64,000 bases of DNA, taken from contig JAHQJS010000006.1 in assembly GCA_019057385.1 (NCBI GenBank), positions 869,038 through 933,037 on the forward strand, written 5' to 3'. Made by a program: the position numbers and the translations under genes. The notes beneath the pieces are model-generated. The model had not been told where the DNA came from. It did not search any database and saw nothing but the letters and a program-made list of their open reading frames with translations. Shown one piece after another: positions 79 to 35,756 of this stretch. Every line of letters begins with the position of its first letter. Within the stretch, counting starts at the first letter, position 1. The DNA is from Candidatus Borrarchaeum weybense (GTDB lineage Archaea; Asgardarchaeota; Sifarchaeia; Borrarchaeales; Borrarchaeaceae).

Positions 79-1788
79 GATAACTAAGCAAGAAAGCACC
101 ACAGCTTCATCGTGGTGATGAATTGCGGTAGATGTGTATGTTCACTTTCATCAGGGGGTCTGTTAACATTTAATACTGGTGTGCCTTACATATTGTGATG
201 ACTATCTAGTGGCAGGCAGCAAGGCAGGCAGGGAGAGCTACATACACAACTAAGACTTGTGGTAGAGTCACAACTCAGACTATGTTATCTGCTGCATTCG
301 GAGGGATACTACGCACACTTGAAACAAAGGTACATACTCCATTAGAGTGCAGTCGATAACATTGAGAGCGTTTGCATCATCTACGGCAGGCTGGAAATTG
401 ACGCCTGTAAAGTTGAGCCATCCGTACACTAGAAGCCTGAGACCCTCATCACCTCACAATCTTCAATCGACGACGAGGAGGAGGAGCACATCATATGATC
501 GGTTCCAAAAATGAAGCCATCAAGGCCAGTTTGAAAGCCACCAAAGCGCGACGCATGCACCAGAGCTGCCGGGTGTTCATGGTCAAACTAGACAAGTCGC
601 ATCTTAATACGGAAACGCTACATCATCTAAGGATGCTGTTTCTGGAGGCTAAATGGCTGTACAACCATATCCTGGGCCAGCCTAATGTGTTTGAGATGGA
701 CTATAAACTCTCAGCAGTACCTGTCAAAGTGAAAGACACGTTTGAACTCCGTCACCTGAGCCAGTTATCCTCACATATGAAACAAAGTTTGATTACGCGG
801 ACCAGGGATAATATTCGAGGGTTGGCACGCTTAAAAGAACACGGGCGAAACATTGGCAGCCTCAAATTCAAGAGTCGTGTCGATTCAATCCCCTTGAAAC
901 AATACGGCAATACCTATCGCCTACTGAATGCTAAGTATCTCAGAATACAAGGCATCACACAACAACTACGGGTCAATGGCTTAGCACAAATTCCTCGTGG
1001 AAGTGAGCTGGCGAATGCCACCCTAATTCAGAGACATGGTGACTATTATGTGGCCATTACTACCTATCAGGTGAAGGAACAAAAAACACCGCCACCCGAC
1101 AAAACGGTGGGCATTGATTTCGGTCTGAAAACGCAATTGACGCTTTCAGACGGGATCGCTATCCGATACTCGATCCTCCTAAGCCTCAGCAAACGCCTCA
1201 GAAAACTACATCAGCAGTTAAGCAGACAACAGTATCGCAGCAACAACTGGTATCACACTAGACGCCAACTGGAAAAAGCCTATGCCACTCTCAATAATAT
1301 CAAGACAGATATCAAGAACAAACTAGTCCACTATCTACAGGCGACGTATGGAATCGTCTGCTATCAGGATGAGAACCTCAAAGCTTGGCAACGATTATGG
1401 GGCAGTAAAATCTTATCAACGGCACTCGGAGGGATCATACGCACACTTGAAACAAAGGTGCAGACTCCGATTAAAGTCGATAGGTTTTTCCCTTCCACCA
1501 AAACCTGTTCGCGCTGCGGGAACATCCGGGAAATAGGATTGGATGAACGAGTCTATATCTGTCCAGTCTGTAGGTTAGTGATTGACAGAGACTTCAATTC
1601 AAGTGTTAATCTAGAACACGAAGGGTTAACACAACAAGTGGTACCTACGGGACGTAGGGATGTTAAGCCTGTGGAGACTGAATCCTCTACTATGGCATCG
1701 CTGGAATACTTAAATGGTATTCCCTATGTGATAGCAAGTTCGGTCGTCGAAGCAGGAAGCCTCACAGCTTTAGCGTGAGGTAGTTCAC
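79..1788 (+). mobile_element. IS200/IS605-family (IS1341-like, tnpB-only) element
   Basis: Target tetramer TTAC at 75-78, no target duplication. Left end AAAG + hairpin CACCAC/GTGGTG. Right end GAAG + hairpin CCTCAC/GTGAGG, then TAGT-TCAC (ends 1788). Encodes TnpB. Confidence 0.93.
495..1778 (+). CDS. tnpB: RNA-guided endonuclease TnpB
   Basis: RuvC-I VGIDFG, Zn finger PSTKTCSRCG...CPVC, RuvC-III DRDFNSSVNL; the stop codon lies in the right-end hairpin. Confidence 0.95.
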   Translation: MIGSKNEAIKASLKATKARRMHQSCRVFMVKLDKSHLNTETLHHLRMLFLEAKWLYNHILGQPNVFEMDYKLSAVPVKVKDTFELRHLSQLSSHMKQSLITRTRDNIRGLARLKEHGRNIGSLKFKSRVDSIPLKQYGNTYRLLNAKYLRIQGITQQLRVNGLAQIPRGSELANATLIQRHGDYYVAITTYQVKEQKTPPPDKTVGIDFGLKTQLTLSDGIAIRYSILLSLSKRLRKLHQQLSRQQYRSNNWYHTRRQLEKAYATLNNIKTDIKNKLVHYLQATYGIVCYQDENLKAWQRLWGSKILSTALGGIIRTLETKVQTPIKVDRFFPSTKTCSRCGNIREIGLDERVYICPVCRLVIDRDFNSSVNLEHEGLTQQVVPTGRRDVKPVETESSTMASLEYLNGIPYVIASSVVEAGSLTALA

Positions 1789-2621: not shown

Positions 2622-2921
2622 ATGTCAGTGTATCTAATAATCGAAATCAAAGTCAAGGACAATGAATTGTATTCCAAATATGTAGAAAAAGTACCCGAAG
2701 TCATTGAAAGTTACGGTGGTCGATATTTGATCAGAGGTGGAGAAGTAACTTCATTCTCAGGCAATTGGTATCCCGAAAGGATTATTTTAATAGAATTTGA
2801 AACAATTGAGCAGTTACAGAACTGCTTTCAATCAGATGAATATCTTAAACTTTCATCGCTTCGGAAGCAGTCGACTATTTCGAAAGCAATTATAGTTGAG
2901 GGTTACGTATCGCCTGAATAG
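2622..2921 (+). CDS. DUF1330 family protein
   Basis: YGGRYLIRGG...RIILIEF...SDEY pattern, 99 aa. Confidence 0.85.
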   Translation: MSVYLIIEIKVKDNELYSKYVEKVPEVIESYGGRYLIRGGEVTSFSGNWYPERIILIEFETIEQLQNCFQSDEYLKLSSLRKQSTISKAIIVEGYVSPE

Positions 2922-2993
2922 TCAGCAAACTCTCAATTTTTTACGGTTCACTGCTAAACTGTGTATAGCGAGATGTTAATAAGAGATATATGG

Positions 2994-3006
2994 CGAAAAG
3001 TTTATA
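2994..3006 (+). promoter_or_regulatory. Archaeal BRE-TATA promoter, probably driving pre-tRNA-Tyr
   Basis: CGAAAAG-TTTATA about 85 nt upstream of the tRNA 5' end. Confidence 0.55.
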
Positions 3007-3113
3007 CGTACTAGAGTTGTTGTATAAAATCTACCTGCAAGCAATTACAGTTGCATCCGCAGGTTGCTAGAACGCCCCTTAAAGTTGGTACCCCTGGTAG
3101 CTCAATCTGGTAG

Positions 3114-3143
3114 TATCCCTAGGTAATCCTAGGTGACCCCAAG
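3114..3143 (+). other. 30-nt non-canonical D-arm tRNA intron (position 22/23; may slide to 21/22 or 20/21)
   Basis: Removal restores GGTAGAGC; internal hairpin CCTAGG-TAAT-CCTAGG; relaxed BHB (TGGT/CCCA, 3 of 4 pairs). Confidence 0.8.
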
Positions 3144-3158
3144 AGCGGCGGGCTGTAG

Positions 3159-3521
3159 TTAGCATTCATGAAAATAAAGATGTATGAATGTCAGCCCTTA
3201 CGAGTAGCTAAGCAAGAAAGCATCAGTGCTTCAGCGTAGATGAATTGCGTGAGTATGGATTCACTTTCATCACTTATAGAGGAGTCCCCCTAATAGTTAT
3301 AAGGTGGTATGACAAAGAGAGTGACGGCAATTGGAGGGATAATACGCACACTTGTCTACAAGGTGCATACTCCGATGCCATCAAGATGGTTAACAGTACC
3401 TACGGGGCGTAGGGAATTTAAGCCTGTGGAGATACGACCTCCGTAACCCGTCAAGGGGATCGAGTCCGTCGTTGAAGCAGGAAGCCTCATTGCTTTAGCA
3501 CGAGGTAGCTCACTCGCAGAT
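3159..3521 (+). other. 363-nt canonical 37/38 tRNA intron (51-nt native intron plus 312-bp insertion)
   Basis: Central helix CTGT(3153-3156)/GCAG(3516-3519) with 3-nt bulges AG|T and AT|A; native hairpin GCATTCATG/TATGAATGT. Confidence 0.9.
3202..3513 (+). mobile_element. Non-autonomous tnpB-derived element (MITE-like) retaining the omegaRNA region, inside the tRNA-Tyr intron
   Basis: Preceded by TTAC (3198-3201). Left end CTAAGCAAGAAAGCA..GATGAATTGCG..TTCACTTTCATCA matches 84-152. Right end GAAGCAGGAAGCCTCA..GCTTTAGC..GAGGTAGCTCAC matches 1749-1788. No ORF. Confidence 0.92.
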
Positions 3522-3576
3522 ACCCGTTGGTTGCTGGTTCAAATCCGGCCCAGGGGACCATCTACTTATTTTAAAT

Positions 3577-3598
3577 CAGGTTCTCTTAAGAGAACCTG
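3577..3598. terminator. Perfect 22-bp palindrome downstream of tRNA-Tyr (possible terminator or processing hairpin)
   Basis: CAGGTTCTCTTAAGAGAACCTG is its own reverse complement. Confidence 0.5.
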
Positions 3599-3718
3599 CA
3601 TCTTAGTTTTAATCAGCCCTTTGCAAGCATCCTTTTTCAAGAGATTATAGAAAAAAACAATTTTTTTATACTCAGCTGTCTGTTATGAATATGAGTGACA
3701 AAAAGAGGTAATCTAAAA

Positions 3719-3960
3719 GTCAACTACCCCATCCTTACGGGTAGGGGCTTGTTCACACAAGTCTCTTAGTTGATTAGAGGGCATCTCATCTTGAGATGCA
3801 GCAGTTGTTTAGGTCATGACACCCTGGGGTGCTCCACTAGCCCCCTGCTCTGTCGTCGGTGGTTAAAAGTTCTGAGGGGTAGGAACGGTGCTGCCGACCT
3901 AATAAGCCTTTACAACAGTCTCGAAGTGGACCAACTCCCTAGTGTTGGGAGCGACGGGAC
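3719..3960 (+). ncRNA. Standalone IscB omegaRNA (HEARO-like) scaffold
   Basis: Blocks collinear with the iscB leader: TAGTTGATTAG, ACACC..GG.TGCT...CTAG.CCC.TGCTCTGT, GGTGGTT.AAA, CAGTG/CGGTG, CGAAG.G.ACC.AC. Confidence 0.85.
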
Positions 3961-4079
3961 TTGAGAGTACCCGTCATTAAAACACCGCCTCCTGTCCTCA
4001 TAGAAGGGGTGGTTAAATGAACCTTCCCTTCTCTCCTCTCCGTCTTAATAAAGTGACGGAGTCTACTTGAGGTGTAAAA
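3719..4079 (+). mobile_element. Non-autonomous IscB-type IS200/IS605 element (iscB deleted)
   Basis: Starts GTCAACTACCCC..GGGGCTTG like the iscB element at 35756(-). Keeps GGACTTGAGAGTACC (the first iscB codons, MRVP). Terminal hairpin CTCCGTC/GACGGAG-TCT, followed by ATGA. Confidence 0.85.
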
Positions 4080-34269: not shown

Positions 34270-35478
34270 TTAATTGTTTTTAAACGTAAATATCAATCCT
34301 TTTCCATATTTCAACAACTCCACGTTTTTGATATTGGTGTTTACGACTTTTCCGTTTGAATCACTTAATCGTACCCATGTTCCATAATTAAATACTCCTT
34401 TGACTTTGTATCGTTTTCCATTATAGGTTACCAAATCGTGGGGTTGCAACTGGTACCTCTGTCTCCTAATTGACGGTTTGAATCCTCTTCTGTTCTTCTG
34501 TATAGAACGATTATTACGCCTGACTTGCATCACTTCATAAGGACGGCAGCGTTCTTGATTGGATCCACCTGCAATAACAAACGCATCGTTGATATGCGAT
34601 TTTTCCAGCCCTAACTTGTTCCGCTGGTATTTGGTGATATATCCGTAAGTATGTTCTGCACCTAACTGTTCTACTATCCTCCAGCGAATAGTATTCAGAC
34701 ATGCTGGTGCTTTAAGCGGTTGCGTTGCCTGTTGCTGGATGTGAGGATACCCAAACTCCTCGGCAGTCTTATTTCCTTTCTTAAGATTACATTTCCTGCA
34801 TGATAACGTCAAATTCGACACTCGGTCTGTCCCGCCTCGGCTTTTCGGGACGATATGCTCGACTTCTAAGGGCACGTTTGTTTTACCACAATAAGCACAT
34901 GTACGCCCCCACTTATCCAGTAGATATTCTCTGACTTCATAGCCTTGAAGTTCGCCCTGTTGATATTCTATTCCTGAAATTTCTGGATACTGCATTTTGT
35001 GTTCATCGAAATTTGCCACCTCTATCTTTTTGAAGGGTATCGGAAGTAACGTTTCAAGTTTATCAACTAATCGAATATGTGAATCTTGTTTGTGCTGAAT
35101 ACTGGGGGCTAACCATCCTTCAGGTCGCGTTCGGTTATTAAATCGAGGTGGTCTGTACCCTAGTCTACTTCTACGAGCTCTGCGGTGCCTCCTTTTTTCC
35201 TCTAGCTTTTTAGAGACATCATGTCGTAAGTTCAGCGTCCCACTAATGACTTCTAACGTTTCTGTCTTGGCACTAAACCCGATGTTCGTATATCCGATGT
35301 CCACTCCGAGTTTAATCGGTTGCCTAGATTCTCCAGTAGCATAGTTCAACTGCACAGTAAAAGGGCATCTCTGGACAACCTGTGCATTTCCTTCTTTTAA
35401 TAATTTCTTTCCTTTGCGTTGTGTGGTAGGCATGAGCGGTTGCCCCCTCATGTTTACTACATAGATAGGTACTCTCAA
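34270..35478 (-). CDS. iscB: RNA-guided endonuclease IscB
   Basis: PLMP domain, LGVDIG (RuvC-I), Arg-rich helix RRHRRARRSR, KIEVANFD (RuvC-II), HNH EHIVPKSRGG..NL..SCRKCN, SHINDA (RuvC-III). Confidence 0.96.
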   Translation of the reverse strand: MRVPIYVVNMRGQPLMPTTQRKGKKLLKEGNAQVVQRCPFTVQLNYATGESRQPIKLGVDIGYTNIGFSAKTETLEVISGTLNLRHDVSKKLEEKRRHRRARRSRLGYRPPRFNNRTRPEGWLAPSIQHKQDSHIRLVDKLETLLPIPFKKIEVANFDEHKMQYPEISGIEYQQGELQGYEVREYLLDKWGRTCAYCGKTNVPLEVEHIVPKSRGGTDRVSNLTLSCRKCNLKKGNKTAEEFGYPHIQQQATQPLKAPACLNTIRWRIVEQLGAEHTYGYITKYQRNKLGLEKSHINDAFVIAGGSNQERCRPYEVMQVRRNNRSIQKNRRGFKPSIRRQRYQLQPHDLVTYNGKRYKVKGVFNYGTWVRLSDSNGKVVNTNIKNVELLKYGKGLIFTFKNN

Positions 35479-35756
35479 GTCCTATCGCCTCCTTTAACTG
35501 GCATTACAGGAGGTCGGTTCTCTTCGCCAAGGTTATCAGTCAGTACTCTATGGTGATCACTGAGAGTTTCCTCTCTGTTTAAACCACCATTTACAGAGCA
35601 AGGGACTAGAGAAGCATCCTTTGGTGTGTTCTTTAACTCTCCTGATAACGTAGATACCGTCATGTGTGTTTCACCATGACCTCTCTTAGGCTAATCAACT
35701 AATTACTCTTACTCCTCACGGAACAAGCCCCGTGCCTTTAGGGAGGGGTAGTTGAC
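35479..35756 (-). ncRNA. IscB omegaRNA (HEARO) scaffold; guide from the flank beyond 35756
   Basis: Structured non-coding leader of iscB with typical blocks (GTTGATTAG, CTACGTT, GGATGCTTCTCTAGTCC..GCTCTG, CAGTG, CCTTGGCGAAGAGAA). Confidence 0.9.

Follow-up and report, generated by a model that had tools for sequence, protein, structure and literature searches.

Can a tRNA gene go on working after a transposon has entered one of its introns, and is such a resident a mere passenger or part of a dedicated system? The question is raised by the tRNA-Tyr(GTA) gene near the start of a 64,000-nt stretch of the Asgard archaeon Candidatus Borrarchaeum weybense (GCA_019057385.1, contig JAHQJS010000006.1), which we call the window and whose positions are used throughout. 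The window corresponds to G000:C6:869038-933037, in an assembly that is metagenomic and contains N-gaps (4.18 Mb, 37% G+C, 8 contigs, 100%-complete). An initial annotation, made from the letters alone, had described here a 363-nt intron at position 37/38 of the tRNA that holds a 312-bp protein-less insert after the motif TTAC, and this description we could confirm base for base. The insert is a mobile element, and we think it probable that it is a tolerated passenger, neutralised by host splicing at the intron's bulge-helix-bulge (BHB) motif.

A transposon insert in the 37/38 intron of tRNA-Tyr

The gene, whose structure we parsed by hand, can be read directly from the sequence as three exons and two introns on the forward strand (3091-3560; Table 1). 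Joining of the exons yields a 77-nt RNA whose fold is a perfect cloverleaf, the anticodon being GUA and the acceptor end having a C1-G72 pair and A73. Because of the introns, neither ARAGORN in its default mode nor the Rfam tRNA search returned a match at this locus, and ARAGORN with long introns allowed missed it as well, calling several dubious long-intron genes instead. The shorter of the two introns, in the D-loop, had gone unmentioned in the initial annotation.

Two congeners, G002 (= L003) and G004 (= L001), carry the same gene without the insert. Their gene is 158 nt long as against 470 nt, with ...CAGCCCTTAC directly joined to TCGCAGATACCCG, and their 37/38 intron measures 51 nt as against 363 nt, a sevenfold difference. 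This empty allele, which is exactly the one that the initial annotation had predicted, also occurs in five contigs from JGI metagenomes, where a pattern accepting either junction returned empty alleles only, and in one Logan contig from sample X4 that skips exactly 312 bases (3199 to 3512). The X4 sample holds empty and filled alleles together. Between the filled allele and the empty ones, the exons and the 51 native intron bases are identical. The insert starts directly 3′ of TTAC (3198-3201) and ends in ...GGTAGCTCAC, followed by TC and then by GCAG (3516-3519), whereas eight empty alleles read TTAC joined to TCGCAG at this point; the insertion was thus made 3′ of a specific tetranucleotide, with no target duplication.

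Multi-copy repeats are places where assemblers often break or mis-join, and the insert might in principle be an artefact, a repeat copy mis-joined into the tRNA locus. None of the Logan contigs listed at the locus spans the entire insert. Separate contigs nevertheless bridge each of its junctions with 0-2 mismatches: the left junction in X1 (probably the source sample, 2021; record 1), X3 (marine sediment, 2015; record 10) and X4 (marsh, 2025; record 19), and the right junction in X1 (record 3) and X4 (record 22), the contigs of X1 and X4 having been built independently. The boundaries of the insert are, in addition, exactly those of its repeat family, and the flanks rejoin perfectly into the empty allele. 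Since three studies supply contigs across the filled junctions, misassembly, a risk that the initial annotation had itself raised, is very unlikely, and we give it almost no credence. The insertion is a derived, lineage-specific state that persists across samples spanning ten years.

What kind of element is it? The sole open reading frame (ORF) of at least 50 aa in 3202-3513 is a 55-aa frame with a TTG start (3245-3412). Sequence comparison identifies the interior of the insert as a remnant of a tnpB coding region, and BLAST shows homology to a tnpB-only element at 79-1788 of the window at both ends of the insert, in a stretch of its interior and over its last 120 bp. Without a credible ORF, the insert is therefore a miniature inverted-repeat or palindrome-associated transposable element (MITE or PATE) of the IS200/IS605 family. 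Aligned with the element at 79-1788 and with about 40 copies of its own family, it keeps the transposon ends and the region of the omegaRNA, the guide RNA of TnpB, as first annotated. As an element it is nothing out of the ordinary, since IS200/IS605 MITEs or PATEs with a guide-RNA module are a known class; what is unusual is where it lies.

The native part of the intron deserves a description of its own. Positions 3159-3201 show 0/43 differences in six of seven empty alleles, and the complete native intron shows 0/51 in six of the seven, which come from diverged lineages. Related alleles of the D-loop intron show as many as 7/30 differences. The sequence suggests that the native 51-nt intron is under selection. 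Selection on the intron has been reported for eukaryotic tRNA-Tyr introns. The native intron can pair with the anticodon stem-loop (CAGCCC/GGGCUG), and no C/D-box motifs were seen by eye in its 51 nt. One related lineage carries a compensatory change in the acceptor stem of tRNA-Tyr. In the L045 lineage (JGI Ga0114925_10294559), about 60 nt past the match at 144-171, the tRNA-Tyr sequence breaks inside the T-loop, between GGTTCAAAT and GGAAAATTC..., which suggests an extra intron at about position 59/60.

Table 1. Parts of the interrupted tRNA-Tyr gene, its insert and the related tnpB element, in window coordinates
Feature	Coordinates	Strand	Basis
tRNA-Tyr exon 1 (acceptor 5′ strand, D-stem 5′ strand, D-loop)	3091..3112	+	Sequence; same in congeners L001 and L003
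D-loop intron, 30 nt, non-canonical; CCUAGG/CCUAGG hairpin, relaxed BHB	3113..3142	+	Removal restores D-arm GCUC/GAGC
tRNA-Tyr exon 2 (D-stem 3′ strand, anticodon stem 5′ strand, C32 U33 G34 U35 A36 G37)	3143..3158	+	Invariant in 7/7 empty alleles
Canonical 37/38 intron, 363 nt	3159..3521	+	Sequence
Native 5′ part of 37/38 intron: hairpin and linker, with TTAC target-adjacent motif (3198-3201) at its end	3159..3201	+	Joins 3514-3521 in empty alleles
312-bp protein-less IS200/IS605 (TnpB-type) mini-element (MITE/PATE)	3202..3513	+, sense to tRNA	Exact empty site in relatives; family boundaries
Right-end module, homologous to tnpB 3′ end and right end (omegaRNA scaffold region)	3389..3513	+	88-96% identical among mini-element copies
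Native 3′ end of 37/38 intron: UC, GCAG strand of 4-bp BHB helix, first two bulge nucleotides AU	3514..3521	+	Same in every empty allele
Predicted 16-nt omegaRNA guide TCGCAGATACCCGTTG, spanning 3′ splice site 3521/3522	3514..3529	+	3′-flank rule (PMC10055086)
tRNA-Tyr exon 3 (A38, anticodon stem 3′ strand, variable loop, T-arm, acceptor 3′ strand, A73, encoded CCA)	3522..3560	+	Sequence; cloverleaf
Full-length tnpB-only IS200/IS605 element (TnpB ORF 495-1778), TTAC-flanked, ends GGTAGTTCAC	79..1788	+	Pfam OrfB_IS605, Cas12f1-like TNB

Probable splicing of the enlarged intron

The BHB helix, both bulges and all tRNA arms had been judged intact at the outset, and the sequence and the cloverleaf fold agree with this. 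The motif consists of a 4-bp helix, CUGU (32-35) with GCAG (3516-3519), and of two bulges on opposite strands, one made up of A36, G37 and the first intron U and the other of the last intron nucleotides A and U and of A38. It adjoins the anticodon stem GCGGG/CCCGU, and cutting after the second nucleotide of each bulge would give the canonical tRNA. A fold constrained to form the cloverleaf and the BHB together carries a cost of +5.5 kcal/mol for the filled allele versus +5.9 kcal/mol for the empty one, which is feasible, and keeps the insert as a separate domain closed by its own two ends. The minimum-free-energy fold also makes the insert a self-contained domain, with its ends paired through GAGU/ACUC plus GCUAAGCAA/UUGCUUUAGC; the pairing of the insert ends that the initial annotation had drawn is thus roughly borne out.

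The enzymes for splicing are encoded in the genome, namely two paralogs of the splicing endonuclease EndA (at C4:663774 and C5:195898), which measure about 210-220 aa and both possess an N-terminal and a C-terminal domain, and one archaeal RtcB ligase. According to PMC5829648, non-canonical introns are cut only by the (alpha-beta)2 (heteromeric) and epsilon2 types of EndA, and the non-canonical D-loop intron of this tRNA-Tyr would need an enzyme of such a type, as would the numerous other interrupted tRNA genes in these lineages (10.64898/2026.10.13.758758).

We propose that a non-autonomous IS200/IS605 mini-element, consisting of a left end, a tnpB remnant and a right-end guide-RNA module, transposed 3′ of a TTAC that would lie in the single-stranded linker of the native 37/38 intron, in the sole archaeal-type tRNA-Tyr(GUA) gene. 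Single-strand 'peel-and-paste' transposition would have left no target duplication. The splicing endonuclease would read only the BHB formed by the nucleotides at the exon/intron borders, and since all of these are unchanged, the intron would still be removed and the insertion would be phenotypically silent: EndA would excise the enlarged 363-nt intron, and RtcB would join the exons. If the excised intron is circularised, its predicted junction joins 3521 to 3159 (...UCGCAGAU-UUAGCAUUC...). Judging from the unchanged signals and the enzymes present, splicing of the 363-nt intron is very probably intact, and we infer that it takes place and that the insertion is neutral. The element would then be a fortuitous passenger in a 'safe harbour', with no dedicated system behind it; it would be co-transcribed with the pre-tRNA, and any guide-RNA activity of this particular copy would need the unspliced precursor.

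Several points weigh against a silent passenger. In empty and filled alleles alike, the outer helix h′ of the strict hBHBh′ motif comes to only about 2 bp (AG/CU), so that the BHB is a relaxed rather than a strict one, and the minimum-free-energy fold prefers an alternative helix, GGGCUG/CAGCCC, over the BHB. The conserved native intron may have a function that the insertion disturbs. A single metatranscriptome contig (run X18, 3000-3193) retains the D-loop intron; it includes 91 nt upstream of the gene and stops 8 nt before the insertion site, is uninformative on 37/38 splicing or on the allele, and may represent DNA carry-over or a precursor. The mature tRNA, for its part, cannot tell the alleles apart, because its exons are identical to those of the congeners. 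The assembly is metagenomic and gapped, and a second tRNA-Tyr could be unassembled. Finally, the last 120 bp are the best-conserved part of the element across its family (88-96%), which hints at selection for an RNA function in the family as a whole, used in trans.

The relaxed BHB with its weak outer helix and competing alternative helix, as well as the N-gaps of a metagenomic assembly, would fit a dead gene, in which the 363-nt intron is poorly removed and tyrosine is decoded by an unassembled copy or by the other tRNA-Tyr(GTA) of the assembly, at C1:19738-19818. The latter gene, however, has a G1-C72 pair and a long variable arm and is of the bacterial type. Archaeal TyrRS requires C1-G72. 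The C1 gene sits in a tight, phage-like tRNA array beside an RtcB and an HNH gene, on a contig that holds no copy of the repeat. The array (C1:19435-19896 = L007:7436-7897) comprises six intron-less tRNA genes without encoded CCA; contig C1 itself measures 179 kb at 39% G+C, has many ORFs without a family match, and looks like a mis-binned foreign replicon, probably a large phage. Searches of the assembly with ARAGORN, Infernal and our own pattern scans found no second archaeal-type tRNA-Tyr, which bears on the concern of the initial annotation that another gene might be the functional copy. Two of these scans, with regular expressions, gave hundreds of AT-rich chance matches that were judged by eye and not exhaustively; among the matches listed and inspected, only the present gene and the C1 gene were convincing. 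Moreover, the exons of the filled allele are free of mutation, the allele recurs in samples of 2015, 2021 and 2025, and formation of the BHB costs the same with and without the insert. A dead gene is, in our judgement, decidedly improbable.

The element family and its guide-RNA module

BLAST finds 19 full-length copies of the family in this genome, 77-88% identical, and 18 shorter ones in which about 55 bp at the left end and the final 120 bp are preserved; the total is about 40, on contigs C3-C8, with none on C1 or C2. Full-length and short copies share the same boundaries, starting with GAGTAGC after TTAC and ending in ...GGTAGCTCAC. TTAC stands immediately before the start of similarity in 17 of the 19 full-length copies, and similarity stops after TCAC in all. 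All five genomes of the genus contain the family, at 10-40 copies each, and it is old and dispersed. Only one of 25 copies sampled across the genus adjoins a tRNA (a T-arm follows it), and this is the tRNA-Tyr copy; the other long tRNA gene that emerged from a T-arm scan of the genome (C5:182207-182460, 254 nt) has no repeat element inside. Nothing points to a targeting of introns by the family or to a dedicated intron-dwelling lifestyle. One of some 40-55 copies in a BHB intron is more than the naive expectation, a post-hoc count of one from which we draw no conclusion.

The TnpB of the element at 79-1788 matches the ISDra2 TnpB structures. Its nearest public relatives lie in metagenome-assembled genomes that bear the names Candidatus Borrarchaeota, Ca. 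Borrarchaeum yapensis and Ca. Sifarchaeum, and they set the organism among the Asgard archaea. The genome has eight full-length TnpB genes belonging to this clade, of which seven are open and one contains an internal TGA. The element at 79-1788 is a lineage-specific insertion too, as both congeners read ...CGTTTATGT(A/G)TATCTTATT... across the site. The genome has one Y1_Tnp (tnpA) gene. The element that contains it has a TnpB with only 34% identity over 56 aa, and its hairpins differ; its right end finishes similarly, in ...GGGGTAGTTCAC. Given that the sole tnpA belongs to a distantly related element, the present-day mobility of the mini-element family is uncertain.

Some further details of these elements may be recorded here. 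The Y1 transposase gene (G000 C7:194100-195900 = L004:1471-3160) overlaps a 427-aa tnpB of a distant clade, and ATAGACTTGG occurs both just inside the left side and right after the right end of its element, which hints at a tandem or nested insertion. The element at 79-1788 lies about 15 bp upstream of the start of a gene for a metallo-beta-lactamase fold. Its 5′ untranslated part (290-350) contains a copy of about 60 bp, 84% identical, of the tnpB coding segment 1419-1471 (GGIIRTLETKV), and the same segment is the internal piece that long mini-element copies retain.

Does the insert supply a guide? In IS605 elements, TnpB is guided by an RNA made up of the right-end scaffold and about 16 nt of 3′ flanking sequence, and the target of this RNA is the empty site once restored (PMC10055086). 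The right-end module of the insert has the same three-part architecture as 1641-1788: a stem-loop (CCUACG/CGUAGG) comes first, a domain that is closed by CCUGU/GCAGG follows, and the right-end hairpin stands last. In the alignment, subfamilies differ in this hairpin, CCUC(N)/(N)GAGG, by compensatory changes from G-C to A-U. The central arm of the module, however, differs from the right ends of all eight resident tnpB elements of the clade, which weakens the case for its use by TnpB 495-1778. Compared with shuffled sequences, the module folds no better (z = -0.44), as against z = -3.27 for 1641-1788. Rfam gives a RAGATH-18 match at 3423-3483 that is sub-threshold (24.7 bits against a cut-off of 44.9) and, for the 3′ end of the full-length element (1560-1830), noise only. 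Little covariation was seen among 37 right-end modules, copies too similar for the fold to be judged by it. The homology and architecture of the module agree with the idea of the initial annotation that the copy supplies omegaRNA in trans, while the divergent central arm and an excised intron without the full guide speak against it.

A further difficulty lies in the guide itself: 8 nt of its predicted sequence come before the 3′ splice site (3521/3522), which separates TCGCAGAT from ACCCGTTG. The excised intron, whether linear or circular, would retain only 8 guide bases (UCGCAGAU). With the splice site inside the guide, the excised intron cannot bear a full guide, and only the unspliced precursor could guide TnpB; in that precursor, the predicted guide is paired within the BHB helix and the anticodon stem. 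This constraint had escaped the initial annotation. The initial proposal that the guide targets the empty allele holds as a sequence match, which is true by construction for any IS605 insertion; a working role for this copy is weakened by the cut 8 nt into the guide. The sense orientation is dictated by the TTAC-bearing strand and does not require selection.

These results bear on the reading that the initial annotation had put forward, that of an archaeal, host-spliced analogue of an IStron. The tRNA promoter would drive a guide RNA, TnpB acting in trans would cut the empty allele (TTAC plus TCGCAGATACCCGTTG), recombination would restore or spread the insert, and splicing would keep the tRNA working. 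Co-transcription with the tRNA is indeed predicted from the sense orientation: the right-end module and its flank would be transcribed with the pre-tRNA, and the intron is without any run of at least four T able to terminate transcription. That same orientation is, however, set by the TTAC strand, and splicing would destroy the guide that such a transcript would carry, 8 nt inside, while in the precursor it is engaged in base pairs of the BHB helix and of the anticodon stem. The module keeps its three-part architecture and is the most conserved part of the family, yet it has a central arm unlike all resident tnpB right ends and a fold at the level of shuffled sequence. As for the proteins, eight same-clade full-length TnpB genes, seven of them open, would be at hand, and guide RNAs that are encoded by gene-less PATEs and used in trans are an already accepted idea (PMC10055086); against this, the only tnpA of the genome belongs to a distant element. 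The joint presence of empty and filled alleles in X4 is a setting in which homing would act, although the arrangement occurs a single time among the copies examined. On balance, we consider the analogy in this full form unlikely. We regard as quite unlikely, too, the specific mechanism in which unspliced pre-tRNA-Tyr would double as a TnpB omegaRNA guided by the anticodon-stem region, with the element-free allele of an essential, single-copy gene cut and converted, EndA splicing keeping the host alive, and EndA and TnpB competing for one RNA, a conflict parallel to that in IStrons except that host protein enzymes would do the splicing.

Other mobile elements lie close to the gene. About 160 bp downstream of tRNA-Tyr, a 356-bp protein-less element (3719-4074) starts at position 1 of a full match to HEARO, the IscB guide RNA (3719-3935, 128 bits), and may be called a HEARO-only mini-transposon. 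All of its 356 bp are absent in congener G004 and in a metagenome contig of X3, and present in G002. With it, the number of IS200/IS605-family insertions in the same 4-kb stretch comes to three, and each is lacking from at least one of the two relatives. A second HEARO RNA (35513-35756, 131 bits), on the minus strand, lies directly upstream of a 402-aa ORF (34270-35478), and the two presumably form an intact IscB element (34270-35756, minus strand), from which the HEARO-only copy at 3719 might obtain its protein partner.

Relation to known systems

Among known systems, the closest to the insert as an element are IS200/IS605 PATEs and MITEs with an omegaRNA, which have been noted in Geobacillus stearothermophilus (PMC10055086). 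Like them, it has no protein gene, has hairpin-bearing conserved ends and exists in many copies per genome; like them, too, it is inserted 3′ of a short motif without target duplication, and its right end shows homology to the part of tnpB elements where the guide RNA lies. It differs from them in that this copy lies in an archaeal tRNA intron and in that its central arm has no full-length counterpart in the genome.

As an arrangement, the locus recalls IStrons (10.1101/2023.11.20.567912), in which a transposon in an essential transcript is made harmless by RNA splicing, and in which splicing and guide-RNA maturation are mutually exclusive. Here too, splicing excludes a complete guide; the 3′ splice site of IStrons separates scaffold and guide, whereas here it cuts within the guide. 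There is no ribozyme, neither a group I intron nor another ribozyme family having been found in the window or in 2900-3700, and removal would fall to the host's EndA and RtcB. No tnpA or tnpB is present in cis, the splice sites do not coincide with the transposon ends (the 5′ one is 43 nt upstream of the left end, the 3′ one 8 nt downstream of the right end), and the intron predates the arrival of the transposon. What survives of the IStron analogy is therefore a transposon hidden by RNA splicing, and every defining feature of an IStron is missing.

Cargo-bearing BHB introns offer another comparison. LAGLIDADG homing-endonuclease genes occur in archaeal rRNA introns. A C/D-box guide RNA is hosted in an archaeal tRNA-Trp intron, according to a passage in PMC12558985 that cites it. 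Like the present intron, cargo-bearing introns tolerate a large cargo since only the border motif is read, and once excised they are circularised. Their cargos, however, show conservation between species, and what they act on is either host RNA or the allele that lacks the intron, whereas the insert in tRNA-Tyr is a recent, lineage-specific transposon copy whose putative target is the cargo-less allele.

Interrupted tRNA genes are common in these archaea, with about two intervening sequences per tRNA gene in the Asgard Borrarchaeaceae and Sifarchaeaceae (10.64898/2026.10.13.758758), and the tRNA-Tyr studied here carries two introns as well. The same census finds no general link between intron gain and mobile elements in Asgard lineages; the mobile element described here created no new intron and enlarged an existing one sevenfold. 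The circular omegaRNAs reported from archaea lack BHB motifs and lie outside tRNA introns (PMC12558985), and a paper on tRNA disruption in Caldiarchaeum (PMC3293823) does not describe the arrangement. Full-text searches of the literature, whose coverage is incomplete and does not prove priority, turned up no paper on an IS200/IS605 element within a tRNA intron of an archaeon.

Taken as a whole, the arrangement is real and rare, and it looks tolerated rather than purpose-built. It amounts to a natural experiment on the archaeal tRNA splicing endonuclease, with two alleles of a tRNA gene that looks essential and without a second copy. The alleles have the same exons, and all that sets them apart is a structured cargo of 312 nt in the intron; should the filled gene still function, then splicing takes no notice of such a cargo. 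The locus documents the entry of a mobile element into an Asgard tRNA gene and, with it, one route by which introns grow. It also sets up a testable competition between host splicing and the formation of TnpB guide RNA, analogous to that of IStrons.

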